Shown here piece by piece: positions 868 to 27,900 of a DNA stretch of 64,000 nt (position 1 is the first letter of the stretch; every line of letters begins with the position of its first letter). The stretch is from Chiloscyllium plagiosum. Taxonomy: Eukaryota. The notes beneath the pieces were generated by a model that worked only from the letters and a program-made list of their open reading frames with translations, ran no database searches and was not told where the DNA came from. Both the position numbers and the translations under genes were made by a program. Location of the stretch: NCBI RefSeq assembly GCF_004010195.1, contig NC_057719.1:43649685-43713684 (forward strand), written 5' to 3'.

Positions 868-971
868 CTTTATCAACATGAACTTTTGCATTGGCTCATA
901 CCACTGAAGTAAGACAATACCAGACTGCAGCGCCCCACAGAGGTATTTATGTCCAGTATATGGATTTCGCA
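868..971 (-). CDS. MAP4K5: MAP4K5 exon (104 nt, phase 1-0): [35 protein letters not shown]
   Basis: Acceptor actgcag, donor gtcagt; contained in ORF 688..984. Confidence 0.96.
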
Positions 972-3900
972 CTGCAGTTATCAAACAGAGATCAACAGTA
1001 ACATATTAATAAGCTTTCAAAAACAAATTTATAAATGATATGAACTTGCTTTCAAATGCACTCATTAAATTTCATTTTCTTGTACCAGCCATGCAATATT
1101 CCTATATGCGGCAGTCTAATCTACTGGGCTTTTCAAGAGAAAGATATGTAGAAGTGTAGATTTGCATTACTTTTATGCTTCAAATTCCCAATTTTAGCTG
1201 CTTTGCTTTTTGGGGGGGTGGGGGGGGGGGGCATGTGAATATCAAATGAAAAAGGAAGAGCAGCAATTTTAAATGATTATTTTTGCACACTTCCCAGCAA
1301 CCAGATCATAGCAGTATTGACTAAAACATATGATATACGATCATATGAACAATAATAGAGTCGCAGTCATATCCTTATGAAAACATTTTAAATACAACTT
1401 TGTATATTTAACAACTATGTTCCAAGCAAATGGTGAAAAAGAACAGAATTTTAAAAATTGAGAATTTTACACACCAATGCAGCATTTGTGGCAGCCTTTT
1501 GTTTCTGGAATTTTTGTTGTTAAAGCAAACCTCCTGGAAACAATATACAAGGTAAATTTCAGTTACCTTTCACATTCATTTTCTAATGACATTTGTGGGT
1601 TATGGCTCATGCTACAAATCAATATCGTGAATATGTCATGAGTTCAATGACGTGTCTAGTTCTCTGATTATGCCATCCATCAACTATTTTAACTGCTTTG
1701 CCTCATCTTCCAACTAAATATTTGCAGCCATTTTAATCTTCCCTCTTTTTTCAAAAGATGCTGTTCATTGGTATAATCTTCATCAAACTTAAGATCTTAA
1801 TCCAAAGATCTGATAAAGGATCTGCTCTCCTGAAATAGTAAAATTTTGCAAGGATGCTGTCTTAAGTGCTTCATTTTGCATATATTCTCAGACATTAGTT
1901 TGGACATCACGTATCAGTGCCGGTATTCATATATGCTCTACCTGGAGTTACTTAGAAGAGAACTGCACCAAAAAAAAATATGGAATGAGGAAATGGAATA
2001 ATGAAAACATATTTTACACTGCTTCACACAAATAGTACAAATGTATTTGCTTACCTGGGTATTATCTTGTCAGGGAAACGATGTGTTTGAATATGGGATG
2101 CCAGGCCTGGTTTTCTGGCCTGTTCAAATAAGGCAACCAGATTGTGTGAATAAAGCTGAAAGGTTTTACCTGCAAATGTAAAGAAATATTAAGTCAGAAA
2201 ATGGACAACTGAAACCTATTCACAACACACTGTTTTGAACATGGACAACGATTTGCTGATAGGATGCAGTTAGTTTGGCCTATCATTATTCTCAACTACA
2301 TCCCAACATAAGGCATTACCCAAAATAAGCTTCAATTTTGGATTTTCCAAAATCATATCTGATGTATGACAAGAACGTGTCCCTTCCAAAACTTATCACA
2401 GCTAGATGATCCAAATTCTTTGCATTCATTCTCATATGCATTTTGGCTGGTGCTCTAAATTGAGCCTATTACTTCAATTTTTCTGCCTGCCATTCCAATT
2501 CAATTCTTTTATTCGTTTGCACTTCCTTTCCTTGAAACCCTCACCAGGTACTCCACAAAATTGAAATTACATGTCCCCAAAATGCAATTTTCCATTTGTC
2601 CAATTATTCTCTTTGTAACATGTTCCACATTCTTACCACTGTCTGGATAAAGAGGTTTCTCTTAAATATCAGAGATCTCTATCAGATTATTCTCGGAAAG
2701 AGAAGACACAAGATCAAAGAGTTAGCTTGTTCAACTATTTCCAGATAAGCACAACTCCAGTTCTGGCATCATTTCAAGTGCCTTTAGGGCAGAGGAATAT
2801 AGTAGTCGGAATAGGCTTTTAACCCCTTAAGCCTGATCTGCTATTTCTAAGTCTTGGCTGATTACTTACCTTGTTAGCAGCTCCTGTTGGGATCTGAAAG
2901 GAAGGGTAGGACAGAGAAATTAAAGTATTGGGAGGAGGACAGGGCAGGAGGGGAAAGTGGGGTTGGCGGGGGAGGGGGGGGGGAGGAAGGAGAGAGAGGT
3001 GGGGAGAATAGTGCAGAGAGGAAGGTGGAAGTAATAGGCTTAGTTTAGAGCACCAGCCAAAATACAAATAGAACTGGACACATGCAATTTGGATTGTGGG
3101 GCCATGGTAACACCTAATACAGGATGTTTTCATTACATCACTTTCCCATACTTTCCTCATATCTCTACACAATTTTAACACAGGATGGAGATCAGTACTG
3201 TGCACAATATGTTAGCATAGTCTGACCAAGGTCCTATATAAATTTAACACAAACTTCTCAGCTTTCCAATTCTATCATTCCAGAAGTGAGTACCAATGCT
3301 TACTTTTATGAAAAAAAGAAAATGGCAGAATTAATCAGTGTTACTACTTTTAGTGATTGGTATATCTGAACTTCTGGATCACATTTGTTCCCCTATTCAA
3401 TGTAAACAATTATTCATACACTATGTTACCTTATTCTTCATTCCAAAAAAAAAAAACTACCTCATATTTATACATATATACATCTATTCTGCAAATGTAC
3501 AATATACAGGCTGGTGCTGATGGCATTTATCTTCATTATTAACAATACCACTCTCACCTCCAAATTCCTCAGCATCCAAACTGAGCTTGGAACTCTATAT
3601 GCTCTCTATCATAAAGCTTGTTTATTTCTACCTTTAACATTGCATGCACCATCTCTCTATCAGCACATTTGTCCTGAAATCTTTGGTTATGTCTTACTTG
3701 CTTTTAGACTCAGTTATTTCAATCTTCTCCATCTCCAGTCTCTCATTCAAAAATCTGCTTGTTGCATTACATTCCAAATTACTTTGGCTCACCAAGCACC
3801 CACTTATCCGGTGATCTGCACTAATACCCAATTTCACATGTTGCCAATTTAAATTCTTTCACATTTCCAACCTCACCCAATACAACTCTTCCTACCACCC

Positions 3901-6900
3901 CTTCACAGCATTAGCACCCACAGCCACAGCAATCAGTCTTAGGGCTCTGAAATTTCCTTGTTAAACTCCACTGCATCTCAATTTTTCTTTCCTTTCTGAA
4001 AGTCACCCTGAAACTTTCCTATCTTTCCAATATCTCCTTCACCTCACCACCAAATGTTATCAGATGATGTGCATTAGAAACAAAACCAAAATGCAATTTA
4101 TGATTTAGAATTGTCTTTTTTGATTTCAGATACCAACATTAAAATTAGTTGGTATTTAGTAGCCTTTTATGCAGAAACTAATCTAATTAGAAACTCAATA
4201 AACATGAGAAAATAATAATTTGAAAATTCTAAAACTTAAGCTTTTTGAAAACCGATGTATGTTATGAAAAAAATATATTACATTTAACAGATTTGTTTTT
4301 AGGTAAAAAATAACAACACTGTTAGCTGGGTTCTTCCATAATGAAAATCACTGTTTTCGAGCCCAGAGATATTTTGCTTCAATTGGAATTACTTATGCAT
4401 GATATATTGTGTGGAACAATTGCATATTAAGACAAATCATAACTTTACATCTGTGGAGACTCTGATGCAAAAGAATAAGTACAGATGGTTCAGAATAGCT
4501 TGATCATACTCCGTGCAAAATAAATGAAATAACTTATAATCAATATGGAGCATACCTTTAAGTGACAATTCTAAAAATAACAGTGAAGCAAGAAACCAAA
4601 AGAGTATTGCTTACTCTTAGCTCCTGTGTTATACTGAATAAATCTAAGTTGTCAGCAGTGTTTAACTACAGTAAAAAGTAAATAAGGTAATCAATTGAAA
4701 AAAAACTTAAGGATAACTAAAGAGTCTGTACTGTTACTGCCCGAAACTCTGATCGGACACTATCTTTAATATTCTGTAGTGTTCACTAGTCACTCAAAAA
4801 TCATCAGCTCCTTGAGAAAGTAGTGAAGTAAACAGCTAGAATAATTAAGCTTAACAAGATTTTTGTGGCAATGCTATTAAATGGGGCTTGGCTTCTAGTG
4901 GAGGACAAGCTTGGATAACTTAGCTGACATTTTTAAGACTGTGAAGATCATCAACAATTTGATCCAAGTAAATTGTTCACTATGTCAAGGAGTTGACATT
5001 TATCAAAGAAAACTTTAGTCATAGACTAGGTTAAGAGAAATGGGCACAGCACTGGGCATTAATGTGTTTGAGAAACTATCAGACACTTCCAAAAGGACCA
5101 AGAAAGTGCAGATGGATTTGATCTGCAAGAAAAGTATTATCCATATTTAAGGAAAAACTAGCATTGAGGGTAACATTTCTGACCATAATGACCTAAGGAG
5201 GTGCAATCTCACCATGAGCTTTTGGCTAAATTCAGTTTAAAACATTCTGGAGTATGAAGCTGACATCATTAATGGTAATATAAAACTATTAAAAACTCAA
5301 CTGGCTCACTAATGCTCTTTTTGGAATCTGATCTTATTATGTAATCTGGTTTATATGCAATTTAAGATCCACACTAGTATGGTTGACTTGTGACTGCTCT
5401 CCGAAAGAGCCTTGTTATTATCAAATCATAATAAAAAGTAATTATGCCAGCCAAGATGTGGGTTTTATTCACAAAAAAAAAAGCACACAGCCAGTTAATT
5501 AAACAGCTGCCTGGCATCAGCCACTGTTCTAGACTCCTCCATCACCATTCCCACACCTATAGGACAAGACACAAAGTGGTACACAAAATCCTCAACATTG
5601 GCACAGGGGTCATATAGGCCATTTGTGACACCCGCCCACTCACAAATTATTACTGCTACGGCAAATTCAAAGGAACCATGAGGATACCAAAAGCATACAT
5701 AAGTTTAATTACTGATCGGTTTAGCAGCACTAAGCTGGCCAAGTTCTAAACCAAAGCAAGACCAGGTTTTATTATTTGCTAATGGGATCCAAACAAATGA
5801 ACTGTTTTGTCAAGCTTCTTGTATTGGAGTTGTACTCATATAAGCAAGTGAAATGTTCCACCTCACTCCTGACTTCCATAAACAATAGTGCTGTGAAAGC
5901 AGGTGAGCTGTTCACTGCAAAATATGCAATAACTTATGGGCGATGCAGACTGGGCTAGCATTTATCATCCATCCCTAGTTTTCCTCAAGTAGGAAGTGGT
6001 GAGCTGCCTTCTTGAATCACTCCCATCTGTTTGTAGGCACACCCACATTGCAGTCAGGGAAGGAGTTCCAGGGTCTTGACCCAATGGCAAAGAATGATTT
6101 CAAAGTCACGTAGCTGAGTGGCTTGGAGGAGAATTTGCAAGAGGTAATGTTCCCATGTATTGCTGCTTTTGCCCTTCCTATATTTAGCATGATTGTGGTT
6201 TTGAAGACAAATCTACACAGCCACAGGACATTGCTGCAAGGATTTCCCAAGGCACTAGGAAAAACACAATCATTTCTAGCTCTTTCAAATGACTTTTAAC
6301 CTCAATGCAAGATTAGAAATGGGGATATTTTCTGAATGTTCAGTTAAATTCACAACTTTTCAGGTAATGAAGCAGTCTATGACCCCTGTAGTCAACCCTG
6401 AAAAAAGACCTGAGTTGCCAAGCGCAGGTAACACTGCACCCACATAGGCCAGGCAAAATCCATCTCTAATAATAAGACAGCAGAAAAACCTCTCCATAAC
6501 AAGGTATGGCATTATCATTATTAAATTCCCCCAGCATCAATATCCTTTGGGGATGGAGGCAAATGTTGGGCAAGGAGAAGGGTTTGGAAGTTACTACTGG
6601 ACTAAGCTGTCGAAATAAATATTGCATCTATGAAAGCAGCTCAAGGGCTGCCTTTGCTGCAGTAAACCACAGCTCTTACCATCATCTACAAGGAGCAAGT
6701 CAGGACTGAGATGGAATATTTCATTTGCCTGGATGAATGAAACTCCAACAATGCAAGAAGTTCAACAAAGCAGCTGATCTGTTTGGATTAAACACACAGA
6801 GGGTGGTGTGTATATGGAATGAGTTGCCAAAGAGAGTTGTGGAGGCTGGTATAATTACAACATTTAAAAAGGTTTAGAGGGATATGTGCTAGGTGCTGGC

Positions 6901-9900
6901 AAATGGGACTAGATTAATTTAAGATATCTGGTCGGCATGGATGAGTTGAACCGAAGGGTCTGTTTCTGTGCTGTATATCTCTATGACTCTATGTTCTCCA
7001 ACACCAGCATTTGTGGCTACAGAGTGTTTCATGTATAAGATGCACTTCAGTAGCTTGCCAAAGCTCTGTAACAACATCAACTAAACTTGTTAGCCATAAT
7101 ACTTAAGACAGGGAAGGGCAATGAATTTGTGGGACCATCACTATTGTGAAGATCCCCTCCAATGCTCATGCTATTCTGACATGGAAATATATTATTCCTT
7201 TATTGTTGTTGAATCAGAAACCTGAAACTCCATATCTACTCCAATGTTATGGAGTACCTTCACTACACTGCTTAGTTATTCAAGGTGAAAGTTCACTCCA
7301 GGATAAAAAGGCCAAGTGAAAAATGTTGGCATTATGAACAAACCCAATACCTCAAACAAATAAAAAAAAATATTCAAACAAACTGCAAACCAAACATAGA
7401 ATCCCTACAGTGTGGAAACAGGCTATTTGGCCCAACAATTCCACACCAACTGTGAAGAGCATCCCACGAGATTGATCTCACCACTGCATAGTAAGGAAAC
7501 CTTGAAGATAATCTTATTAATACTAGAAAACTGGCATGTGCAAAGGAAATGATAATTAAAGAACTGTATCTGCAATTCACAAGTTAAATCTTTTAGAATG
7601 AAACTATTAGCTGCTAAAAATTTTCAGATAGGAGGAATAGGGCTAATATCCATTAGAATAAAGTTCAGCAATATAATAGGCATGTAATAACTAAACACAC
7701 TGACGGTAGCTTAACTTAAATCAAGCCATTTCAGGATGTAAATTTTAAAGAGTTTAAGAGGCACTAACTCTGGAAAAAGACATTGTGTTAAGCTTTTCAC
7801 AACAAAAATAGATGGTTATAAAATCCTGCAGGCAATTAACATACATAAATGGTAGAGAACTGTAATGGCATTTTTAACCCAGCCTTGTAGAAGGAATCAA
7901 ATTTTACTGAAACCTAATCCAGGGGAGTGAAAGATATAAACAAAGCCAAAAGGAATTCAGTGAGGTTGTTGATTTACCTGGGTGGGAGGATATGAGCATA
8001 TCCTCTAAGAAATTATTTTTGAGATCTAGGTTTGGTACTTTGCAAAAATGGATCTCCTTTGGGAAGAGCACAAAGTCATAAACTTGCACTTCAACATTCT
8101 ACTTAGATGTCTAAGACCATAAGGTCTAGGAGGAGAAACAGGTCAGTCATTCAGCTCATTAAATACACTCCAAATTCTTCCTCAGGCTTCCTCTGCCAAT
8201 CTGACAACCCTAATCCACAGGAAGATTAAAGCCACCCATAAAAGTGTTAGAACCTCTGGTCAAAACAAACATACTATATAAACCAAGGGTGAAAATATTT
8301 AAATTGTGCTTACCTTCTGCTCGCAGTGACCAGGTCAATTTGGACATGAAACGAAGTGATTATGGGAAAAGGAGAACACAAGAGGGTTGATTAATTTTTC
8401 AGGAATTTAAAAAGCATCTATTATGAACAGTAAAGAATAGGAGAGGACAGTTCAATGGTTATTTCAGTTTAAAATCTAATTTCAGTGCAAATGACAAAGC
8501 ACATTTTAATTGATCGTAAAGACAATATAAACTGTTCATTTTCTAAAATTATCAAGTTAAAACTTTCATCATCCTATACTATTTAATATGAGGGGTGACC
8601 TTATAAACTTATAAAATCATGAGGGGCATGGATAGGATAAATACACAAAAGTCTTTTCGTGGGGTGGGGGAGCCCAGAACTAGAGGGTATAGTTTTAGGG
8701 TGACAGGGGAAAGATATAAAAGGGACCTAAAGGGCAACTTTCTCACAGAGCGTGGTACGTGTATGGAATGAGCTGTCAGAGGAAGTGGTGGACGTTTTTA
8801 AAAGGCGTCTGGATTGGTATTTGAATAGGAAGGGTTTAGAGGGAAACAGGCCAAGTACTGGCAAATGCGACCAGATTAGTTGGAATGTCTGGTTGGCATG
8901 GACAAGTTGAACCAAATGATCTGTTTCTACGCTGTACATTTCTATGACTCTATGACAAACATCTACAAAAGACAAAATTCAAAAGGATATTTCACATTAG
9001 AATACCATAGTATATACATTAAAGCATATTTATATGATGCACCTGAAAAAAAACTGTCAAATATTGATTGGAACCATATTATAATTTATTCTAATTCATC
9101 CAAACTATAGTTGCCCATGGTTCTACATCAATAATGTACTTATTTATGAGTCTTATTCAAGGACTGATAATTAGGCAGTCTTCAAAAGTCAAGCTTATTA
9201 GTATTCTCAATTGGTAACTAATTAAGATGATGTAGGTTTGATCCATGGAATATGTGGAATTAACTAACATCACCTGCTAAAGCAGTAGAAAGAATACATG
9301 GACTTCAGAGTTGACTTTAAGAGCAGCAGTGGTTTGCTTTTGAAAACAGGTGGAAGAAACAATAGTTCTGACTTCTGTCCAGTGACTCAGGGCAGAAAAT
9401 GAAGTTTTGACATGAATGATTCACATTAGGAGTCCAGGATTTGTTGCAAAATTATCAATAATTTATTTTCAATAACGATCCTTATTCTTTGTGTTTAAAC
9501 AGTGTACTTCATCTCGGGAGTACGGTTCAAAGGGAGAAATAGACTTTCAACATCTGAATTAAATGACCACCCTTGATGAATTTTGATTCTATACAAGCTT
9601 AAACATGCACACTTTCCAAAAGACATCAATGGATAGCCATCAGCTCAGTTATTTTCCCCTCAATTACTCCAGGGAGTAAACATTTATTGCTGCCATGAAC
9701 TAGCTATAAAGAATGTAAGTGTTAGTTGTTATACCAAGCGTATTAGCACTCACTACTCTTCTGCCAGAGAGCAATTTAGAATCCCTAGTTACCCAGAAGG
9801 CAGACAAGAGTTGCACTGAGTTATATATAGTTACATGTAGGTTAGTCCAGGATGGAATGGCAGTTACGTTCCCTAAAAGAACACTAATGAACTGGATGGA

Positions 9901-12900
9901 TTTTTCTGACCATTGATAGAAGTTTCATGTTTACTGTTAGACTCTTAATTTCATACTTTTTTTACTAAATTCAAATTCCATTATGGTGGGATTCGAAACC
10001 AGGTCTCCAGAACATTATCTGGTTTCTGGATTAATAATCTAGTAATATTACTAGTTAGCCATCACTTCTCCACAGTAACCACACTACTGAGTAATTTAGA
10101 TTACTTCAACATATAAAATTCCCCCCGGTACTTGAGAACTGCAAACAGTCCATAAGGAGCTACTTTACAGCCACCAACGAAAAAACAATTGGGCTGAAAC
10201 TAGAACACAAAAGAAATTACAGGAATAAGGCCAGAAGTAAGTCAGACCTCCCTGAAGGCATCCAAAGATTTATGCATACTAAATCTATAGATTCAAATAT
10301 GAATTTTCCAAATGTATTTTTTTTTTAGAACTAGCTAGATGCTTTACACTGCTGGATTTCTTTAATACTAAAACAGTCTGTTTCCTTTCATTAGGTTATC
10401 CCTCTATTTGGTTTCTTGAATGCCCAGTTCATCCTCATCTTAGAGTAACGATTGTACTTTGTTCAGTACTGTCATACCTTATTTACATTTCTATTTCACA
10501 AATTACTGCATATGGTTCTCGAGTGTATCTAAACTTTCTCTTTTGCAAAATTCACTCCTGCTGTTTTTCACTTCTAATGTCAGAGCAACATCAGCTATAT
10601 TGTAATTTTAAAATTCTATTATATTGCAACATAGAAAGATTCAAACTCAAAATTCATCGCAGCAATTAAAATCAATTTTCAATTTGTCCATGTTCCCATG
10701 AAAACTAGAATATGGCTATTACACCTATTGACCTGCAATAAAATGAAGTAAATTTACAAAAGCAAAGTTCAACATATTAAGACTTGACTAAATGGATACA
10801 TACCTGATAAAGACATTAGAATATTATTGATAATGTACAGCCAGGTACATCGCCTAGGAAAAAGCTGGGAAAATATATTTGATTTAAACATCCATTAGAA
10901 ATATTAAAAAGTTAAGTGAAAGTCATTCAAATAAATTTGAAGAAAAGATTTGCACAGTTGTTACTCCACTTGTCAAAACAGAATCCTAGAATTCAGTGTT
11001 ATACTTCTGACAATGCTGTAATTCCAAGAAAGATATAATCTCTGTTCAAAATGCTTACTTGTTCCATTGAAGCTTCATGCAGCTCATTCAGATTTAACGT
11101 ATAAATACCGTCTTCAGTTCCAAAGATTAAATATTGGTCTAATTTAAAAGAAAAACAAAGCCAAAGTTAATATTTCATTAGAAGAAATACTGCATAACTT
11201 TTTTTGTAAATAGTTTCAGTTAAAAGCAATTTTTGTTTAAGTAGCATTACCCTTTGTGTCAGGGTGTATCCAAGATGTAGCACAACTGATCTTCAAAGGA
11301 CATCCATCAAATACTTTTGTAAAGCAGGCACCCATCTATAGGAAAGTTTTAACATTCAAAAATTTAGTTGTTAGTTTTGGAAAACAACCGAACACTTTCC
11401 AAGAAAACATTTGAGAATCAACTTGTCCCTATTTGAAAAATAACCTATGGGACAGAAGTGTTGTTCAGCATTTAAGGTGGGTTCTAGATTGAGAGTACTT
11501 AAAATATTAGTTGCTGTAAAAGAAAATATAGACACATTATACCGCTTCAACTCAATAAAATAGGTGATAGCTATTCTCTGGTTCAATTCTTTGGGGCAAT
11601 GCATTGACCAGTCAATCTGCCTCGTTTAAAATTGTGGTAGTTAACAGTTATCATTAACTGGTGCACTCTCCATGGGCTGCTGCAGAAATCACTTAATGAA
11701 GCACAATTGTTCACCTTGGAAATTCTGTGGTCATGGATTTTGTGGGTCCTTGCGTGGTTGATAAGCCTGATCGTCAAGCTACATCTCAGACCACACTAGT
11801 CAGATGTTTCCAGGGGGTGGAATTGATCCTTGGCTTCAAGATTGCTGGCACTCCTTTCTCCAGTTTAATTTTCTGTATTTGGTCTTGCTGACTGATGTTC
11901 TCAAAGATTTGCCTATCTTCATACAGGAGGTTCCTCCAAGTCAGTTTCTTTAGAATGAGTGTCTCCCATGCGTTGACATCCACGTTACATTTCTTGAGAT
12001 AAGCCTTGAGGGTGTTTTTGGAAACTTTTTTTTTTGTCTTTCTTTCATTTAAATGCCTTCCTTGAGCTGGGCAAAAATGATTTGCTTTGGCAGTCAGAAC
12101 TCAGACACCCAAAGCATATGGCTAGCCCAGCAAAGTTGATTCTGGATGATCGAGGCCTCTACACTGGTTCTATTGGCTTTCAAGGATTATATTAGTATGT
12201 CTGTCCTCCCAACTGATGTGGAGGGCCCATCTCATACTGCATTGATGATACTTTAATGGTACTGAGGTGGTGTGAGAAGACATTTTATCTTCATGGCAAT
12301 GCGCCCATCAACCACAGTCCATTTGCCAAATGATCAGCACTATTTTCTCACATGTTGTTTTCCCTACCGCTTTGGCATTTTTGTGAACTGTCCTGCCGAG
12401 TGCAAATGAAAGCTTCAACAAAATTTATCTTTCTTCAGCAATACTCAAGTTCTGTACTAGCAAATAACTATAGTTATTAGTGATGGTCATTTGTATCATC
12501 TGGCACAAATTCAAACTCAGAATTTAAATTCAAGTAACTGCTATCATCAAGGATGGTAATGTTAAAGAGTGGGAGCAAAGAAAAACAAGATGTACTAGAC
12601 CTTAGAAAAAAAATTGCATCCTTGTCTTGCCATTGTTATGGGTGAACTCAAACAGGTATTATTACTGCTTGTTGTCAGGTACCTCTTTTCATGTGGGATG
12701 ACAAAGATGTTTATATAGAGTTCAGGTGGTTCCTATTCAGCCTACAGTTATAAAGATTTTTTGTTCATTTGTGAAAAGTTGTCATTGTGTGAGATAGTGG
12801 AAGGTGCATGTATTCACTTGAATCCTCCTTCCAGACAGAAGTGGAGACAACTGGAAGAAATTAAATGGTGAAGTATGGTAGCACACAGTCAATTCATTGT

Positions 12901-15900
12901 AGTTCCTAGCTTGAAATCCAGCTAAACCAATGAGTGCAAGGGTCCTTTTCTTACAAAATGAGTTTGCACAATTACAACTCAAACTGTAGTGTCCTTGGAC
13001 CACAGCAAAAGTAACACTTTTTTTTAGTATTAAGGGGTAAACCGAGTCAAAGAGGTTATATGAATGCACAGGAAAAGAAAAATGAACATTAATAAAAGTT
13101 AGGGCCTATCTTTGATGAAAACACTTTACTTTGCAGAATGTTTGTTAGATATTGCAATACCCAATGAAGTACTTGACTATTGTTACATACAGGAGAAAGT
13201 GAGGGCTGCAGATGCTGGAGATCAGAGCTGAAAATGTGTTGCTGCTTTTCCTGCTGCGCTTTTCCAGCAACACATTTTCAGCTATTGTTACATACATACA
13301 AATAAAGAGGGGTTTTACATCAACATACATTATCACATAGAATATCGGCAATATTATTATTCATCAATTTATATAACTAGCTTAATAACTCCAATAAAGT
13401 ATTAATTTATCCTCAAGTTGTCACACTTCAGAGTATTAAGAGAATTACACATTAAGAAATTGACTTACATGGACCTTTGGAGTCGGAGGAAGGCCATTGA
13501 TTGTTGGCTTCTAAAAAAATGTCAATTTTGAACATCATTAAGAAGTTAAATTCAGTCATTTCAGTAAAGTATATAATTTAGTAGCATCATGACAAACATT
13601 GCACACAATAATCACTTGGCTCCAACACCTGTTATCCATAAAAGCTGCCATTTAATGTATGAAAAGTTAAATAGAGATTCAAAGTCATCTAACCCCCAGT
13701 TTGTCAGGCGAGGGAAAATACAACAACAAAAGGTAATATGTACACTCTGGTGCCCATTTCAATCTGATCCAGAGTAAAATTAATTTAATACAACTTTATA
13801 TGTAAGATATAGAAATCTTATCTACATGATACTATGTTTCAACTAGCTTGAAATTCATAACGACTTTTTTTAGAAAAAGAAAACATCCATAAACAAAAAA
13901 TCATCTGTGGAACCTAAGATACATTTCTAATGTGAATTTTCAGTAAGAAAGGCTCTTGCAAAAATGCTGGGAAGACCCAAACCTGAAGCCTTGGTACTGA
14001 AACTAACCTCTATGCTATTTAGGGTAATAGGCAATTTTGCGGTAGAACAGAGGAGTACCTAAAATTGTACAGCCTTGTCTCCTGGAGGCAGTTTCCTCAC
14101 TTATTAGATTTGGCAAGTTAGCTGCCTCAAACCTGAGTGTACACATAAAACCTTGAATATGCAAGTCTGCATCTCACTGATACAGTCCTAGGATATCTCT
14201 TGGGGAGGTCAGGTGCCCTTAAGGAAAGTTAAATGTCAGCAAGACTGCACATAAAAGTACATAAACTCATTGGAATGTCACGCAAGTCATCATGAAATTT
14301 AGCTCTGTTGAGCTTTAAGGTTAAAATAAAACAGAGTTTGTAAAAATACATTGATATAAGCCTGCAAGCTATTAGAGAACTCGTATTGCATGATTGATCA
14401 AAGTGTGGTATTTGTTAAATGAATAGCTTGATTAACAATTTCAGGTGGTTACAGAATAGAAATGTTGCTTTCACAAGGGAAGGAATGATGTACTGAAGTG
14501 AATGTATGCAATTTAAGAGATTAGTTCAAGGGATTTTGATGTGCTGGATACTTTTTTTTTGTAAGTCATTAAGAGTTTCCTTAAAAACAAAAATAAGCAC
14601 AACTTTATTTTATGCCAGAATAGCTCCCGAGATCGTCCATTGGTAAACAGCAGGTAAGTTGGTGTGGAATGGGTAAGGGGAAAGGGGTAGTATAGGTTGG
14701 CATGGATGGAATATAAAAGTGAGAGAGGGGACTGCAGGGCTGTTTTCAGCTTTAAATCATTTGAAACAAAAATAACCAAACAGTGCCAGTGCAAAGGCAG
14801 CTCTTCTGCACAACCCACCCCAGTAACTTACACGCTCCACACCCATTCCAGGGCCACTCAGTTTGACTGCATGTCACCTTTTCCATGATGAGGAGGTGTC
14901 AGTGTTGGACTGGTTGGACAAAGTTAAAAATCATAACACCGGATTATAGTCCAACAGGTTTATTTGGATAGCAACGCTCTGAAAGCTAGTACTTCCAAAT
15001 AAACCTGCTGGACTATAACCTGGTGTTGAGAGATTTCTAACTTTTCCAAGGTTAGATTTGCAGAATGAGGAACATCCCAGCTCTGAGACCCTATCTGAGG
15101 AGCAAAATTCCAGGTCCAAATCTTAGTAACAATTCAAGAAATACAATCAAATGATTTGAAAATTACAAATGACATACGGGAAATTCTCTCTTTTCTTTTC
15201 TTCGAGGTAGTGCTGGAGGATGCTCAGAAGTTTCACTAGGTAAGCTTGAAAGGCCCCCAACAACACCTGAAAATATGCAAAACAACCATTCTAAAGACAA
15301 ATGAAAAGTAAATTTATGCATAACCAGCTCCACACATGAAAGCAAAATGCTGCCACTACATAACACTCCTTCATCACCTACATAAGCAATTCTTGTATAG
15401 TCATTAATATCTCTACACAATCATGACAATAGAAAATTAACAACAGCTTAGAAATGTTAAACCATATGCATGTATTAGCAAAAACGATCTCTTTGTTAAG
15501 GCGTTTTAATCAAAATTCATTTTTCTGGTGAGACAGGCAAAGTGGTGTGTCTAAAAATTAGAAAATTTATATTTTAAAGTGATACCACTTCTAAATATAT
15601 TCAAAAGAAATTCAGTGATGCAGAGAATGTAAGTGTTTAAAATAAGAAACTGCTTTAGTCTATTTTAAAGTGGGTTATTTGTGACAGATGACAATTCCAG
15701 TAAATTAAAAACCATTGCTACACAGAAAATTGCAAACTTCTGAAAATATTATCTGTGCTAACTTGAAGGTGCCCAAAAGGCAACCAATGGCAAGTCCTGA
15801 AAATTCAGACGTTAAAGCATGAAAAACTTAGTCTCCTCAGCATCTTTTCCAATTCTTATTCAGTGATTTTCTAGTGTTAATGCTATGGGCTTGAAGGTTG

Positions 15901-18900
15901 GGGGGAGAAAAAGTTTTTTGTTTAAGCATTGTTGGATAATGTGTGAACAGATCGTTAGCTGGTATCTGCAATGTAACCAACTGCCTGTAATTAAAGAATC
16001 AAAAATTAATTTAAATTTCATTTGTATCCCGCAAAACTCCGGGACGAGTTCTGAATTTGACAGGACTTAACTTCATTTCTTATGAGACAAAATATTTTTT
16101 CCTGGGAAAAAAAGCCATGAACTGTCCCCCCATCTGACAACTGGCCAGACTCACCTTCACTTTGAACAACTTTTAACACCTCTCACTTTCTTCAAATGAA
16201 AGGTGTGGCTATGGATACCTGCATTGACCCCAGTTATGCGTGTCTCTTTGTGGGGTATGTGGGACATTCCTTGTTCCAGTCCTACATGGGCCCCCACCCA
16301 GAACTTTTTCTCTGGTACACGGATGACATCCAGGACTGGAAAAGCTTATCCATTTTGCTTCCAATTTCTACTCTTCTCTCACCTCCACTTGGTCAATCTG
16401 AGTCCTCCTTTCTGAGGACAGGCTGGCCACCAACATCCACTACAAACCAACCAGTTTCCACAGTTATCTTGATGATACATCTTCACATCTTGCTTACTGT
16501 AAAGACTCTGTTCCATTCTCCTAGTTTCTCAGTCGCTGTTGCATTTCTTCTGATGATGCCAGCTTCTACAAAAGGGGAGTCCAAAGTGTCCAGCTTCTTC
16601 CTCAACCAAGGATTCCCCATCACTGTGGTTGATAGGCCCCTCAGCTGTGTCCTGAACCATCTCCCCACACTTCAGCTCTCACTGCCCTCTCCTCTCCCAC
16701 AACAATAGAGGCTCTCCGGTCCTCATTTACCATCCCACAAGCATCCACATCCAAAAGGATCATTGGCCATCATTTCCACCACCTCCAGCAGGATGCCACC
16801 ACCAAACACACATTCCTCTCCTCTCTAGTCAGCCTTCCGAAGGGACCATTCTCTCTGGGACACCTTGGTCCACTCCCAACACCTTCCACATTCCCAGAGC
16901 ACCTTCCCACGCATTCACAGAAGGTGCAACACCTGCCCGTTTACACATTCCTCCCTCCTCACCATCCAATGATCTGGACACACTGTCCAGGTGAAGCACT
17001 GATTTATCTGCACATCATTCAGTTTAGTCTACCATATTTGCTACTCTACACTGGGAAGACGAAACACAGACTGTGAGACCACTGAGCTTCCCAGTGCCTG
17101 CAATTTCAAAAACCACCATGATCCCTGGTCAATATTTCTGTCTCAGGCTTGCCTTGGTGCTCCAGTGAAGCTCACCACAACCTGCAAGAACAGCATCTCA
17201 TTTTCCATCTCATTGGGGATACTGCAGCCTTCAGGACTCAATATAGAGTCCAATAAACGTTAGGGCCTGAGCACTTCTCCTATGTCCATTTACCTTCTCA
17301 TTTTCTGCCCAAATGTTTGTCTCTAGCTTTCTGGGCCCCATCTCTACCCATTGTTACTCCTACCCCCACCCCATTTTCAGCATATATACCAATCTTTTCC
17401 TAGCTATCAGTTCTCTATCTGTTCTGAAAAAGGGTCACTAGACCAAAACTGTTAACTCTGCTTTCTCTTCACTGATGCTGCCAGACCTGTTGAGTTTTTT
17501 CCAGCAGTGTCTAATGTGTTTCTATTTCCAGCATCCACAGTTCTTCAGTTTTTTAAAAATTAATTTTTGATTAGTCAATGTTAAGTATGACTTCTCAATA
17601 TGATGCATCGTTTTCTGTTAAGTGTAACTGGTCAACCTTAGAGGTATTGGCTGAGAGTAATCTATAAAAATGCTTTTCAAAAGGGATGATTCTTTTGCTC
17701 ACTCCTATACAAATGCCAACATTTATATTTTCATTGTAAAATACTTAACACTATATTCGAGACAAACATTTTCATGGGGGGGCGGGAGAGAGAAGAAGGG
17801 TGGTGGTGCCTCATTTAGATTATGCGAGGTGGATGGGTTGACCAAGGACATGACCCACCATTACAGTCTTGCATTCCAAAGAAGTTGTATTATTGGACAA
17901 TCTCACCACAGCATGGGAAATTTGATGTCACAATGATTGAAAAGTAAATTTTGGAACTTAAATCTGTCAGACCTGTTGTTATGAGATATTATAATTCAAA
18001 ACTAATTTTGATATTCCTACTGTGTGCACTTCAATAAATTAGATAGTTTTCATAGCTATTCTAATGCAGAAGTGTTAGTTTATTCTTAACTTCAAGGCAT
18101 CTAAGTTGTACTAGTTATTCCTACAAAGAGCAATGTGCATGTGCAAATATTTCCTCTTTGACATATCAAGTAGAAATCAATCATGCTGGGGTCTGTTGGA
18201 TAAGAGAGTTATTAGGTCCTAGCTATTGCAAAATCCTTAACAGACTTTCAATTTTATTAGAGATTGACATTTGAATGGGAGAGACATCAATAGTCTAATT
18301 ACAATGCACTGTTCCCTGTATTTACTTTATTTAACGTATTCACAGGCCTACATATTTGTGGTTTACCCTCACATTGCTTCTTCAGGGATATGTTGCATAT
18401 CAATATAGGAAAACTAGCATCGCAAGATTTGCCACATAGCAATAGATTCTTAAGTCCACACAGGGGACACATCCTAAGAATCTGCTTATCCAAATGATAT
18501 ATAGATTCAATGCCACCAAAATACCATCAGCAAGAACAGCATAATCAGGTAAGTTAAGTTCCATGTCTGGAACAGGGAACAACAAGAAATATTTAACCTA
18601 GTCTGTACAGCTTTGGTGATGAAGGATAGAGAGATACATTATGTTAACAGTACAGTGAGCCACTACTCAATATTTAATTTCATTACCTAAGTCATTAGCT
18701 CGGATATCAAGTAATCCAGGGCTACTAATGCTACTGGGAAGGGATGTTTCAAGAATCTCCGATTGATACAGTGATGTTGGAGTACTCTGTCTTCTTGGCA
18801 CAGATGATGGCCCATTTTCTGTGCAAGGTTGCCTCTTGACTGTTTGTGATCTCTCTTCATCTGGAAGATCAGAAGCACTCTGTACCCGTGGCTGAAACAG

Positions 18901-21900
18901 GAGAAACTGGTTTCAATAATATGAATTAGGAACCTTTAAGTTCATTTTCTTACTCCAATGTATTTCCAACAGGAATAAGGCAATTTTGACAACAGTTGAT
19001 CAAGAATGTTAAGAAAAGTAATTTAATTTGAATTAACAGGCAGAGCTTTCAATTTCTGCATGGGCATAAAACTGGCATATCAAATGGGATACAAATTGAA
19101 AATCAGTGAAAAAGGAAACTTGATGCAGTATATAATAGGCAGCCAATTCCATTCTGTCTGTTTTATGCTCGAAAAGTTGACAGTTCTGCCCAAATCTTTT
19201 CAACAAGCTTGAAGATTATTGAAAAATAAACCCTTGGAACTACAACTACAGGCAATTAAACCTAATCAAGTCTCTATAATGTTTGTACGTGTGAATGGCG
19301 AAGGTTAAACTTTAAGATATCTTTAAAACCAATTGTCTTTAATTGCTTAATTAGGTAGAGGGAGGTATAAATTGCTAACAGTTATTGCACTGTAACAAAG
19401 ACAGTGAAATCTTAAAGGAATCATTCAAATTTAAAACACATTAAATGTCTTTCTAACAAAGAAAAAGCTGGTATGCCTTTACTCTGCATTCCTGATCTCT
19501 TTAATTTCACCACTGTGCTTTCAATAGTCCTCTCAACTTAACATTCCTTTTTGATTTAACTTACTTATCCTGTATGGTCCTAAATGAACAGGGACATTTT
19601 TAATGTAAGAGTGCCTCACCCTTTTCCTTTGTAGGAAAATGTCTGCTCTATATCCCACCTTCTCCTGAACTAGCTCCCCCAACTCTGACATTTAATTTCT
19701 AGCATCTGTTTTCATCCACGTCTAAAAATCACACCTCAACTTAAAACTCATCTTCCATTAGACTCTCAAGAGTTGCTGTGACAGAGAGCTCCTTTCATTT
19801 TAGGATGATGAATACTCTGGGTTGAGGTGCAGAGGGTGACAAGAGAGAAAAGAAAAGAAATGCACATCTGCCAAAAGTAGTTTCCTGTTTTGTGAAGCCA
19901 AGAAAAACTTGCATTTGCACTTCTCACAGTTCATTGTAATATTTCAAAGACTGCATAATTATCTAACTCAAATAAGAATCCTGGTTTCAATCCACTACAT
20001 ATGGCTCGTGAGCTAACAATGAAGTTTTAGGGGTTCATGCAGAAACCATACAATCAAATTTCTACAATGATTCAGAAACTTTTTCATTCTGATGATTTGT
20101 GCATAACTAGTAATTCATCATAAGTTTTGCTGCAGGTGATATACTTCAGTAACAGTGAAGGCCCTTAAGCTAAATGTATCATTTAACCTATTTAATTGCA
20201 AGCCTAACAGCCCGATATTTTATTTTAACTCCAACCATGTAAAGTTGGTATAGTGTAGTATTTTGACCAATTTAAGTTAAAAAGACACAATTTAACAATG
20301 AAATTTGATTTTTAAAATTCCCCTAGTAGGGATTACATACATCAGTTCTGTTTTTTTGGGGAGGGAGAAAAAGAGAGACAATTGCATAAGTACTCACCTT
20401 TGGTGGAAGGGGAGGTGGAACTACTCTTTTAAGTGTTGACCTTATAGAAAAATACAAATAGTTAAACAAAGTTCAAAAGGGATGCAATGTAGATATAACA
20501 TGAAGATAGAAATATGTTAAGATTTCACACATTAGAAATACAAAACCAGCAAAAGCTCAGTTCCCCAATCTTCAGGCAAATTCATTTCAGAGATAACATC
20601 TAATAGAAATACGAACATTTATACTTCTCTTTCTCCTAAAGCTGTAAGTCAAAGACAAAATTAGTCCCACTTTTATTTATTTGTTTGAGGATGACAGGCA
20701 AGGCTTTTATCCATCCTTAAACAACTTTCAGAGGAAGTGGCAAAATAGCTCCTTGACTCCACGAGACTATATATTATGGCCACGTGGCTTTTAACATCTG
20801 AGTTTCAAGCTTTTTTTCCCCTCAGTGACAGTGAAAGCACAGCAAGATATTTTCAAGCAATGACGTATGATTTACAGGGAACATGCAGGTGGTGGCGTTC
20901 CCATGTGCCTGCCGTCAGTGTTCTTTTGGATGGGAGAGTAACAGGTTTAGAAGGTTTTGAAGGTTTCACAGAAAGTGAGAACTGCAGATGCTGGAGATCA
21001 GAGTCAAGATTAGAGTGGTGCTGGAAAAGCAGGTCAGCCAGCATCGGAGGAGCAGGAAAATCGACGTTTTGGGCAAAATCCTTTCATCAGGAAACTCCTG
21101 ATCCTGCTCCTCCGATGCTGCCTGGCCTGCTGTGCTTTTCCAGCACCACTCTAATGGTGACTCTGGTTCTCTTCATGGTTTAGTCTGTATACTTACACAA
21201 AAGCATCTGAAATTATTTTCTACAATTCTTCATTGCCCATTCTACAGAAGGTAAGCTGACATCAATAATAGCTTAACTAAATTGAGCTTCAGTAAATTGC
21301 TGAAACAAGCTGATTTAAGATTTTCTACGATGCTCATAGGCTGGTTATGAAAAAAGATTTAGTCTTATTTAATATCTGTAAAATTAATGCAAATCCTACC
21401 ATGAAGCCTTCAAATTTGCCATCCCACAAATAGATCATTCGAATTGGTTCATTGCATTTGCAACTGAAAACATTTTATGATTCTATAGAAATATTAACAT
21501 TGTAATTCATTATAATTTATTCAAATTTAACAATCTACAAGGGCACTTACGGTTCGTTTTCAAAGTCTTCATCCAGGTGTGCTATGTGTCCCCTAAAAAG
21601 TGATTTATAGCATTCCACATTATAGTGACGGAGGTTAACAGAAAACTTTATATTGATGGAAGCATGCTTTATATTGATGGAAGCATGCATACCATCACAA
21701 TATTAACATATATTAAATAAAAACAATTTAAATATTTTGAAAAATGGACTCAAATATGGTGTATAATGAAAACTAAGACAGATGTATAATATTTCAATTT
21801 AAATTGCTTGGGAAGATTTTAACGGGTGAACACAGGGAATATGGTTCTCAGATGAAGTCACACAATCCTTCTTACACCTCAGAAGTACAAGTTGCAATTC

Positions 21901-24900
21901 AAGATAAGATTTGTTAGGTAATGAGTGACAATCTATAATTATACCCTAATCCATATCTGTACAGAACCTGCTCATCTGGAAATTAGAAAAGTCCACACAT
22001 TATAATAATTATTTCTTTTCCCACTTCTATGTATTTTTTTTGAGAAATGTTGGTAAAAGGCTATTTCTAAAACTTGATAATATTTTCTCACCATCGTCCA
22101 ATCTTATACTAACGTATTTATCATTGCCCTTTCCCAGAAGTACGTAACTGACTGAGGATCTACCCAACTGAGATCTCAAAAACATTTGAGATCACATGGA
22201 TGTAGGTTTGCTCGCTGAACTAGAAGGTTCGTTTTCAGATGTTTCATCACCATACTGGGTAACATCTTCAGTGAGCCTCCAGTTGAAGCACTAGTGGTGT
22301 AGCCTGCTTTCTATTTATGTGTTTGGATTTTCTTTGGGAAACCCAAACACGTAAATAGAAAACAGGCTATACCACCAGTGCTTCATCCGGAGGCTCACTG
22401 ATTATGTTACCTAACATGGTGACGAAACATCTGAAAAGAATCCTTCCTGTTCCACAAGCAAACCTACATCCAGACACTCGACCTGAGCTACAAATCTTCA
22501 CAAAACTCGCTAATTTGAGATCATAATTTTGTATCTACCACTTGGTATGATTTACATTGTCTTTTTCATTATTTTTAGTGGCACTTAGCTTTTTATTAAT
22601 AAATTCCTTGTTCAATATGGGGAGAGAAGGAAACTGTGATATGACCACTATGCACTAGATTTGTCAGCACCTTATAATGTATGTAATTATATCTCACATA
22701 CATACTTGAAAAAAATAATTTGATACAAATCACATCTACCATGAGGATGGTTCTAGATAAGAGTTTTGGGTAGCCCACTTGGAAGGAGAATAGAAACAAT
22801 TGAAATCTCAACATTGTCAAATTGGGATAAACTTTTATTTAGGACAGTAAAACATACATTTGACCCATCTCAGAACCACCATTGCATCTACCACAAAACA
22901 CATGTAGTACAGCAGATGGAGACATGGTAGCTACTGATTAAGCTGTTGAGTTACCGTTGTTCCAATCTTCCTCAACACATTTAAGAAGGCTCCTTTGGAA
23001 TCATAACAAAAAGAGGGAAAGAGTTTGTAGAGTAGGATGCACAAGATGTGCTTCATGCCTGAGAAGTGTAAGAAACAGATTGCCATAAGTGGAACTTACA
23101 GCATACTACAGCTGCTGGTAAATTAAAAATAAGTGGCAGTAAAAAGGTAACCTTACCAATTAGCATCTTCCACCTTTAAAGCATATAAAACTTAAGGTTA
23201 CAGCATCATACACATTAGAAACATTTTGCACACACAATCCAATATTTTGAAATAACCAATTACAGAAATTTGTTACGATAGCAACATGTCTCAATTATAC
23301 AGCCAGAAAATAACAGGCATTAGTGAAAGGGTGTGTTGACTCGTGGGCCTGAAAATTTCTGTAAGGATTTCTTAGAGTAATTAAGTTCTGTGGTTACAGT
23401 TCAAGTTCATAGAAATTAATCAAAACCAACTAGGAGTGCACAAAACAAGCTAGACAGAATGCACAAGGGAATGAAAGTAGCAGATAAAGTATGACGAAGA
23501 ATCAGAATAAAGATTCTGCAAATCAAAGAAAAAGCAGGTGTTCTATAAATTGTGCTAAACATCTAAGAATGAAGTTAAGACACTTATGATGGTAAACTCA
23601 GAGCTCAAGTTATCTTCTCATAGGTAAGCAATGCCTGCTAGACAATGCAGTCAAAATAATGACGTAGAAGTCCTGCTTAAACTGTATAGTGGTCTGATCA
23701 TACCACATATTGAATATCACAGCTAGTTCTGTTATCTAACAAAACAGTGACAACCTTGAACCACTCCCCTGCATCATACCCTCCTGTTACTATAGTACCC
23801 CAATAATTCATTTCTGCACTGACACAGGTGTCACCTTTTGAATGAGGACGACATGTCAGGAGCAGCACCAGGCATAAATGAGTTGTCAACCTGATGAAAT
23901 TAAAAAGTGACAACATACATATCAAGCAGCATTAACAGACATAATTAAGCAATCACACATTCAATGGATCAGATGTAAGCTACACAGTCCAGCCCTATCC
24001 AGTTGTGAACAAAGGTGGATGATTATATAATTAGAAAGAAGTACCACAAATATAGTCTCATCTTGAACAATGGGGAAAGCCCAGGACATCAAAAGACCCC
24101 AAAAGACAAGGCTGAAGCACTTGCATCCACTTCAGCCAGAAGTGCAAACCTCAATACGGAGGTTCGCAGTATTGTAAATACCAACCTCCAACCAATTCAA
24201 TTAAGTCCACATAATATAACAATCAATGAAAAGCACTGAGCACTGCAAAGAACTGAAGACTTGCGCTCCAGAATTAGCCACACCCCTTGGCGAAGCTGTT
24301 CCAGTACAGTAACTACACTGGCATCCATCTGGAAAGTTGATCAGATATGTCCCCTCACAAAACACAGGACAAATTCCACCCAGGCAATTATCTCCCAGGT
24401 TTAATTCTCAATCATCAGTAAAATTATAGAAGCTGTGATCAACAGCGCTATCAACATGCTCAACAATAATCAGCTGTAACTTCAGAACTCAGCAGGAAAA
24501 GTGACAGTGACTAAAGGAGCCCAAGCAAACCAAGTTGGGAGATAATTCTACCTGTTAGCCTTATGTCGCACAAATCAAGATAGTGGTGATTGTCAATCAC
24601 CTCAGCCACAGGATATCACTGCAAAAGTTCCTTAGGGGAATGCCCTAAACCTAACTATCTTTATCTGGTTCATCAACAATCTTCGCTCCATCATTAGGTC
24701 AGAAGTGAGCATTTTCACCAAAGACTAGCCAATCTTCAGCATCATTTACGCCTCCTCAGATACTGAAACGGTCAGTGTCCAAATGTAACAAGACCGACAC
24801 AACATTCAGGCTTGAGCAGATATGTGACAAGTAACACTTAAGCTACAAGTGCCAGACAATGACAACCACCAATGAGAAAGAATTGCCCCTTGACATTTAA

Positions 24901-27900
24901 CGGCATTACCACTGAATCTCACTATCAACTGGAAAATTACCATCGAACAGATTATTTGAAGATTGACCCATTCCATTTTCACACAGTATCAATAAACTTA
25001 CCATAGTCCTGGAGAATCATAGGCTGTTCTCAGAGGTGGGTTTAACTTGAGGGTCACTAAACCTCAGGTGAGGGACAAGGTTGAGTGAAGGACCTTCATG
25101 GTGACCTCAGCTGGTATAGGAATTGAACCTTTGCGGTTACATTACTGTGCATTACAAACTAAACAAACTAATCTCACAATATTAATGTATTGCATGCAGA
25201 CTAAGGTAGATTTGACAAATGTCTTTATCATGGTCAATCCATTAAGGAGATATTTAGAGGAAAGCAGTCAATACCTCAAAATTAGCACATCTGCAAGGCT
25301 TATTTTTGCATAAAACTTTGCTGTAGAACGTAGCTTGTGTAAATTATGAATTCCCAATTTTCTGGAATTGATATTTAGCTCATGTGAAGGAAAACTATAT
25401 TAAGCTCTGCAAAGACAGAAAGGAAATCTCTCATCCGGAGTGAGACACAGCCTGAACGATTATATCCTTTGGGAATATGAAGGCAAATTGGGAAATTGAT
25501 GTAGAAAAGGAAAGGGTTTTTTTTGCTTGCTTTCTTTTGGCTAATAGCTTGTAAGGTTTTTTTTAAACAAAATAGGCTAATGGCCCAGCACAAAACAGTA
25601 ACATCACAGGCAAAGTGCAAATTCACTAGTTGGAGATGGCTACTAATTTGACCATTTGAAGTTATTTTCGGACCAAAGGTAAATGAGGGAAATATTTATA
25701 GGCTACAAGCTAAGTATGATATTTTCAAAAAATTAAATGAGAAACTAAGTAATTAAAATAGATATGCCAGGCCAGGTGATGTGTTCTAAAAGCAAGACAT
25801 GGGAGCTGTTGGACCCCATTGTACTTTATGGTGACCACATCTGTAACAAGTATTGGCTGCTTGAGGAACTCTGGCTCAAAGCAGATGAGCTGAGCTGGAG
25901 TCTGAGCTTCGAACACTGGGACACATCAGGGATGGGGAGAGTTACCTGAATGCTGCATTTCAGGAGGTAGTCACACCCCTAAGATCAACTACCTTAAAAT
26001 TAGGTCAGTGATCAGGGACAGGATGATGTGACAAGGAGGATCCCGGAGGTAATGCTGAAAAAGCTTCAGTCTTGAGTTTATCTAACAGAATTGAGATTCT
26101 TGCTCCGTGTGTGGATGTGTGTGGACTACAGGGAGGATGCACAAACTAATCATAGCACTGAGGTACATAAAGCTATTCAGGAAATGGAAAAGAGAAATGC
26201 AGTTGTAATCAGGGATAGCACAGTCAGCGAATAGACACTGTTCTGTTGCCAGGATTGACAACAGAAGGCTGTGTTGCCTGCCTGGTGCCCAGGATCAGGA
26301 TATCTCATCTGGGGTGAAGTGGAACTTTGAGTGGGAGGGAAGATCCAATTGCCATGGTCCGCATAGATAAACGTATAAAGAAAAAGAGGTTCTACTGAGG
26401 AAATAGGAGTAGCTCAGAATTAAATTAAAAAACAGTAACCAAAAGGTAATAATCCCTGGATTACTACATGTGCTACGAACAAATTGGCACAAGGTTAAAG
26501 AGGTAAACACATGGCCCAACTGATTCAAACTCAAGGGATATTGACATCAGTACTGGGGGAGGGTGGTATTCTTATGGATTGGGCTTCACGTGAATCATGC
26601 TAGGACAAGAGTCTTTGCGCATTGCATAACTAGAGCTGCAGAAAGGGCTTTGAAGTAAATAGTTGGGGGGTGGGATAGACACATGAAAATAATGGAGCTA
26701 AGGTGGGTGGGTGGGTGGGTGTGTGTGTCTGCATGTGCGTGTGTGTCTGTGCGTGTGTGTCGCGCCAGGGAGGGGAGGAGATCAGCAGCCAAAACAAGTA
26801 ATACGACAGAAAGAGTCATGAATCTAACTTCAGGCACAGCACATATGGGGATGGTCAATGCAGCACTGAAGATGTAGTACTTAAATGCATGCAATTTATG
26901 ACACAAGGCAAATGAGCCGATTGAAATTTGAAGGTACAATGTTATGGGTTTTGCAGACACCTGGATGCAAGGAGATCAGGACTTGGAACTAAATATCCAA
27001 GCATACACATCCTATCACAAGGACAGTCAGATGGGAAGAGAGAGCAGGATTGCTATGTTAGTAAGAAATGAAATGAAATTAATAGCAATAAGCAATATAG
27101 GCGGCACGGTGGCACAGTGGTTTGCACTGCTGCCTCACAGCGCCTGAGATCCGGGTTCAATTCCCGCCTCAGGCGACTGACTGTGTGGAGTTTGCACGTT
27201 CTCCCCGTGTCTGCGTGGGTTTCCTCCGGGTGCTCCGGTTTCCTCCCACAGTCCAAAAGATGTGCAGGGTCAGGTGAATTGGCCATGCTAAATTGCCCGT
27301 AGTGTTAGGTAAGGGGTAAATGTAGGGGTATGGGTGGGTTTCGCTTCGGCGGGTCGGTGTGGACTTGTTGGGCCGAAGGGCCTGTTTCCACACTGTAATG
27401 TAATCTAATCCAAAAAAAAGTGATATAGAGTCACAAGGTTCAGAATCTGAGAGAGTGGAGCTAAAAAAAAACACGAAGGAAAAAAAGACCCTGATGGGAA
27501 TTGTGTACAGGTCTCCTAGCAGTTGTCAGGATGGGAGTAAGAAAATAAATCCGTATATAGAAAATACATGCAAGAAAGGCACTATTACAATAATCATGGG
27601 AGGACGTCAATATGCAGGTGGACATAGAAAATCAGGTTGGTAGCAGATCTCAAGACAAGAAATTTGTGGAAAATTACGGTCTTTTTGAAGCAGTTTGTAG
27701 TACAGCCTATTCTGGATTCAGTGACATGTAATGTGGCAGATTTAATTAGGGAGCTGAAGGTAAAGGAACCCTAGGAGGCAGTGACCATAGCATGATAGAA
27801 TTCACCCTGCAGTGTGCAAGGAACTTTTCCAAAGGAATAAAAAAAGCTTTGATATCTTTCTCATGTGGCAATACTTTTACATATTTGTATACATCCCTAT

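Follow-up and report, generated by a model that had tools for sequence, protein, structure and literature searches.

The window, a 64,000-nucleotide stretch of Chiloscyllium plagiosum DNA, carries on its minus strand a 3-nt exon, AAG (8314..8316), within the gene for MAP4K5 (KHS1), a kinase of the Hippo and JNK pathways. This exon probably represents, in the shark, an already known 3-nt cassette exon that MAP4K5 carries throughout the jawed vertebrates and that would be recognized mainly through core splice signals and not through SRRM3/4. The microexon as such is already published, in a paper on the human gene and in a zebrafish table, and RefSeq shark models carry the glutamate that it adds. 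The gains made here are modest and consist of an account of the human "GAA" insertion as AAG, the shark and fish genomic copies of the exon, its restriction to MAP4K5, and the placement of the Glu two residues before a Lys equivalent to K558 of HPK1.

Host gene, host intron and splice signals

The MAP4K5 gene body extends over positions 868..60115 of the window on the minus strand, with exons for residues 184-689 of P0143, a RefSeq protein from Chiloscyllium named MAP4K5, which matches the window exons exactly over these residues, split codons and the Glu aside. With the downstream exon as query 561 proteins were retrieved, and the gene-named ones among the best 120 are MAP4K5. The host intron (2170..10803; 8,634 nt, phase 1) is flanked by an upstream exon of 61 nt (10804..10864, ending in TCAG, phase 1) and a downstream exon of 115 nt (2055..2169, starting with GTAAAA and preceded by a TTGCAG acceptor), homologues of human exons 23 and 24 in the numbering of PMC8632122, and the microexon divides it into stretches of 2,487 and 6,144 nt. 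Residue 596 of P0143, a Glu, is covered by neither flanking exon and falls at their junction (10804/2169). Preceded by the G with which the upstream exon ends in phase 1, the microexon yields GAA, which corresponds to Glu596 of P0143 and to Glu569 of the primate protein P0072; the AAG is thereby split over two codons, one Glu is added, and the frame is kept (S-E-G).

Other features of the locus deserve mention. Two small alternative exons of the MAP4K5 linker lie on the minus strand at 21594-21550 and ~22994-22956, encoding 14 aa and 13 aa and represented by separate RefSeq isoforms (P0143/P0009 and P0150/P0149). Exons 11335-11252 and 1532-1475 (minus strand) have weaker donors; the latter was missed in a filtered tblastn search, yet it is present in transcript contigs. 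The host intron, which the sequence-only reading had called otherwise featureless, contains fragments of high-copy repeats at ~6800-7500 and 8590-8940, one of which starts ~270 nt upstream of the microexon.

On the minus strand the site reads gcag/AAG/gtaagc. The donor, GTAAGC (8308..8313), fits the textbook consensus at 7 of 9 positions by simple counting, much like the donors of neighbouring exons. The acceptor region (8317..8338) holds a branch-like TTGAC at -22, TGG at -16, TGC at -9 and a CAG acceptor, and a displaced pyrimidine tract (8364..8386; -70 to -48) lies within an AG-free zone that runs from -102 to -6. The AAG at 8316-8314 in its phase-1 intron of 8.6 kb, the near-consensus donor, the displaced tract, the AG-poor zone and the TGC had all been described correctly from the letters of the window.

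There are 30 NAG/NNN/GT sites in the host intron, 16 of them with YAG, and the one at 8316-8314 is both the sole AAG exon and the sole YAG/NNN/GTRAG among them. Under a first-order Markov model (500 simulations) 0.52 occurrences of YAG-NNN-GTRAG are expected per intron, compared with 0.006 of YAG-AAG-GTRAG; splice signals alone are thus not rare, and what goes beyond chance is the match to the residue that the protein requires. That a YAG-NNN-GTRAG motif arises about 0.5 times by chance in an intron of this size lends something to the view that the AAG is a chance motif and that the Glu has another source, such as an edited RNA, a processed copy, a tandem splice site, or an exon of GAA or of 1 nt located elsewhere. 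It is also in keeping with that view that Kurkowiak et al. (2021; PMC8632122) sought a GAA exon for human Glu569, state its location as unmapped, and leave a 1-nt exon as an option. However, the TTGCAG acceptor is not a NAGNAG, and a 3-nt shift to GCAG would yield Ala and not Glu, which excludes the tandem acceptor that had been named at the outset as a competing origin. The lone AG/GAA/GT of the intron follows a poor acceptor (AAG) and in phase 1 could not encode Glu, no unsplit copy of these MAP4K5 exons was found in the genome, and the AAG exon recurs in the equivalent intron of a fish. A source other than the AAG exon is accordingly very improbable. A 6-nt exon starting from the GAG at -5 was considered separately and rejected, as the A-E-G linker that it would give is present in 0 of 238 proteins.

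Inclusion in shark-like transcripts

Four of 21 listed sequencing runs were compared with positions 800-11400 of the window. Three of them (X1, X2 and X3) provide contigs from three shark-like organisms in three studies; these are presumed to derive from RNA, and their exons are joined across GT-AG introns. Inclusion of the microexon predicts a joint from 2171 to 10804, because the last two bases of the intron are identical to the AG of AAG and take up its alignment, and a single A is left over. Such a joint, with zero overlap, is found in contigs of X1, X2 and X3. In X2 exactly one T (plus strand) lies in the joint and completes AAG on the minus strand, and inclusion in X1 and X3 is deduced from the geometry of the joint, the inserted letter being displayed in X2 alone. 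In X3 a single contig of 4,218 nt spans the neighbouring joints at equal depth (42.6). The skip joint, from 2169 to 10804, is absent from the joints listed for X1-X3, with the proviso that contigs drop rare forms. The microexon junction is missing from the joints listed for a raw-read single-cell run (X11), which has a lone read at one of the neighbouring joints. Inclusion is the form found in the shark-like transcript contigs examined.

These joints, and the E-G proteins described below, bear out the proposal that S-E-G with one extra Glu is formed in the CNH propeller of MAP4K5. The accompanying claim that the exon is invisible to gene finders fails, in that RefSeq proteins matching the window exons carry the Glu.

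Conservation and origin

Among 238 MAP4K5-type proteins the linker at this junction is G in 140, E-G in 62, A-G in 3 and E-S-E-K-G in 3, with one read-through and 29 proteins that lack one of the two exons. The E-G form is present in chimaera, sharks, skates, coelacanth, teleosts, frogs, marsupials and placentals. Isoforms with and without the Glu are both annotated in sharks, coelacanth, teleosts and mammals, and in whale shark, white shark, catshark and coelacanth there are RefSeq isoform pairs in which this Glu is the sole difference. Of 28 records derived from assemblies alone (Logan or JGI) 16 cross the junction, and all 16 of this non-random sample have E-G. Two minor linker forms are worth noting. 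The A-G of UniRef models P0069, P0160 and P0201 probably reflects a CAG acceptor stretched by 3 nt to fit a Glu-containing protein, and the S-E-S-E-K-G linker of salmonid RefSeq isoforms P0206, P0212 and P0214, three residues longer than the E form, possibly stems from a further microexon or from a lengthened one at the site.

At the level of DNA, a fish genomic contig (L034; metagenome, with a teleost-type exon; one of 80 loci) has cag/AAG/gtaatc in the equivalent intron, 252 nt before the next exon, where 0.005 AAG exons would be expected by chance. A CTAAC at -17 and a pyrimidine tract like that of the shark precede it, and the 100 nt before the acceptor contain no TGC. The likeness of the shark and fish upstream tracts is borderline (reached in 12 of 5000 block shuffles, yet also in 7 of 147 pyrimidine-rich control windows), and that of the downstream introns is not significant (497 of 2000 shuffles).

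Evidence from mammals at this level is indirect and comes from ORFs. Four mammal-type ORFs have an intron-like start and continue through L-E-G to the following exon, a sequence that calls for TAG/AAG. In three of the four a Trp stands five codons ahead of the Glu, as it does in the window when read in frame, which implies TGG at -16. TGC is impossible in the last 16 nt of one of them, P0235 (0 of 72 codon sets), and possible in the other three. These ORFs may represent partly spliced RNA in which the microexon has been joined to the downstream exon first, and such an order, downstream exon before upstream exon, would often apply to the microexon. Taken together, the E-G proteins from chimaera to mammals, the fish AAG exon and the mammal-type ORFs uphold the conservation from sharks to mammals that had been surmised from the shark sequence.

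As to its origin, no AAG candidate was found in three paralogue introns of this genome, invertebrate homologues lack the Glu and mostly read S-G-K, an intron being found at the equivalent place in several of them, and the shorter turn is present in 67 of 80 family representatives that cover the site. These observations suggest an origin of the exon in the MAP4K5 line; it appears to have arisen after the MAP4K1/2/3/5 duplications and, as judged from the jawed vertebrates and invertebrates sampled, before the split of sharks and bony fish. Three similar sites differ from the exon in one way or another. A CAG/TCT/GTAAGG site in the intron of the C9 paralogue was rejected, since it would create a stop and its frequency is that of chance. 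The equivalent intron of an invertebrate-type homologue (L059) has TAG/AAG/GTATTC at position 957 of 2761; its donor is weak, a pyrimidine tract is missing, and the site is probably a chance occurrence. Another invertebrate-type locus (L018, 915-960) reads S-G-S-K, the same turn made one residue longer by a different 3-nt addition.

Published forms and tissue distribution

Kurkowiak et al. (2021; PMC8632122) describe human MAP4K5 isoforms 569del and V569E, the latter with Glu569 added by a three-base exon, and note both isoforms also in chimpanzee, mouse and zebrafish transcripts. Since the host intron is in phase 1, the human exon would be AAG, which explains the unplaced "GAA"; the prediction is TAG/AAG/GT in intron 23. 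Should this hold, the annotated Val569 and Ala forms would be alignment artefacts in which the acceptor is stretched by 3 nt, with a TAG acceptor in the case of Val569.

For zebrafish, Lopez-Blanch et al. (2025; PMC12626424) record in their supplement a 3-nt map4k5 microexon, DreEX0044744 (chr13:36591469-36591471), which on the grounds of gene, length and intron size is a putative orthologue. Its PSI is 81 in neural tissue, 55 in muscle, 45 in testis, 43 in exocrine pancreas, 35 in immune samples, 17 in endocrine pancreas and 0 in liver; it is classed as MIC_Neural with a neural dPSI of +62, and its inclusion is ~5% in pre-gastrulation stages and has reached 82% at the 10-somite stage. The supplement lists it without a human orthologue event, which is contradicted by the protein and shark evidence, from which the exon is dated to the jawed-vertebrate ancestor. 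Elsewhere, MAP4K5 was not found in the supplements of PMC7821500, PMC10639058, PMC12868881 and PMC12626420 (12 of 13 files for the last), and its sole entry in that of PMC7935315 (12 of 19 files) is a 4-nt alternative donor event; an entry for the human exon may exist in the tables of Irimia 2014, in VastDB or in the supplementary data of Bonnal et al.

The sequence-only reading had taken the exon for a canonical neural microexon that is off outside neurons and switched on by SRRM3/SRRM4 via the UGC at -9. The shark copy has the size and frame of that class (3-27 nt, frame-preserving), together with the UGC, a strong donor, a long AG-free zone and a displaced pyrimidine tract, and the neural class and embryonic rise of the zebrafish exon point the same way. 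Loss of srrm3/4 also acts on DreEX0044744 with the predicted sign. The effect, however, is -13.3 PSI as the lowest of three comparisons, which is near the authors' cut-off of a 15-PSI drop yet falls short of it and leaves the exon in the non-regulated class, whereas 191 of 243 zebrafish neural microexons pass (PMC12626424). Inclusion in muscle, testis and exocrine pancreas likewise speaks against an SRRM3/4 switch, as does the low value in endocrine pancreas, a tissue in which targets of SRRM3 would be expected. According to PMC8632122 the Glu form predominates in human muscle, adipose tissue, fibroblasts and A549 cells, with a skip:include ratio of ~0.32 in untreated cells that increases to 4.06 with SF3B1 inhibitors. 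The UGC, finally, is missing from the last 100 nt in L034 and precluded in P0235, though possible in the three other mammal-type ORFs. Bonnal et al. (bioRxiv 10.1101/2024.09.17.613571) report UGC in 74-79% of true targets and describe an SRRM4 response as possible without it; UGC is therefore neither universal nor strictly required, and a role of SRRM3/4 is compatible with its absence in the fish contig. The data on srrm3/4 loss in zebrafish and the human non-neural inclusion nevertheless make SRRM3/4 a minor input at most, and regulation of the canonical kind is unlikely.

Recognition mainly through core signals is the preferred explanation. The strong donor, the branch point, the long AG-free zone and the displaced pyrimidine tract would suffice for the greater part of it, and Bonnal et al. 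observe that donor strength tracks microexon inclusion. The tissue pattern would then be specific to lineages, with a neural and muscle bias in zebrafish and broad inclusion in human cells.

A further reading accepts the exon as real but sees no functional switch in sharks and mammals; here the Glu is an ordinary part of MAP4K5, skipping is tolerated splicing noise, and the exon is kept since the fold, having adapted to the residue, would suffer from its loss. It agrees with the uniform E-G of the assembly-derived records (a non-random sample) and the predominance of the Glu form in human cells, with the ability of all paralogues to function without the Glu, and with the report in PMC8632122 that the human isoforms are expressed equally and differ marginally in growth, the growth figures themselves reading inconsistently. 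Against it stand the strong regulation of the zebrafish exon by tissue and stage (PSI 0 to 81), the annotation of both isoforms from sharks to mammals, and the quantitative differences in pull-down partners between the human isoforms, which PMC8632122 describes as marginal. This reading is given less than even weight.

Position of the glutamate in the CNH domain

In a model of the CNH domain in its E form (P0098; pLDDT 88) the Glu ends a strand (109-115) and stands ahead of the G-K-T turn and of the strand that precedes the blade-2 insertion. The model matches the fold of the HPK1 CNH structure 8EEC (TM 0.90 of target, 44% identity), in which K558 (chain position 80 with an offset of 478, checked by I567 and K574) aligns with the Lys two residues past the Glu. 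Chitre et al. (2024; PMC11066036) picked HPK1 K558 by HDX protection as a contact of the kinase domain; binding loss is reported there for a loop deletion with or without K558E, and the passages on these mutants give no separate effect of K558. A full-length AlphaFold2 model built from a 27-sequence alignment reached a pLDDT of 30, and the predicted complex of kinase and CNH domains scored 0.00, which is no evidence either way.

It is tentatively suggested that the added Glu extends the beta2-beta3 turn in blade 2 of the CNH domain, beside the conserved Lys, and modestly shifts CNH binding, including that of MAP4K5's own kinase domain. As a structural lead that can be tested, an acidic residue next to the K558-equivalent Lys could tune the kinase-domain contact. 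A broader proposal would be an ancient, MAP4K5-specific and largely SRRM3/4-independent exon that was rewired by lineage, as a stage and tissue switch in zebrafish and as a default-on exon in sharks and mammals, that is spliced downstream-first, and whose Glu beside the Lys sets kinase-CNH self-regulation; in this full form the proposal is speculative and unlikely to hold in every part.

Comparison with known systems

A parallel is the 3-nt AAG exon of NCAM1, which also adds one residue, in an unrelated gene. The human Glu569 exon shares gene, intron and residue with the shark exon and likewise occurs with both isoforms; the sections of Kurkowiak et al. (2021) drawn on here do not contain the phase-1 AAG reading, the shark copy or the anatomy of the splice signals. 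The zebrafish exon DreEX0044744 resembles the shark and fish exons in its length of 3 nt, in its gene and in a downstream intron of 259 nt, compared with 252 nt in L034, and it is neural-enriched, whereas inclusion in human cells looks broad. The citron-homology domain of HPK1/MAP4K1 (8EEC) has the same seven-bladed fold, and its S-G-K turn aligns with that of MAP4K5; the HPK1 turn, however, is without the Glu, and the kinase-CNH contact known from HPK1 would apply to MAP4K5 by analogy. With the neural microexons governed by SRRM3/4 (eMIC) the shark copy has in common the length range and preserved frame, the strong donor, the AG-free zone and a UGC between branch point and AG, and it departs from them in that the UGC is missing from the fish copy, the zebrafish srrm3/4 effect stays under the cut-off and human non-neural inclusion is high. 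The MAP4K5 exon may serve as a minimal model for inclusion of a 3-nt exon outside the SRRM3/4 programme.
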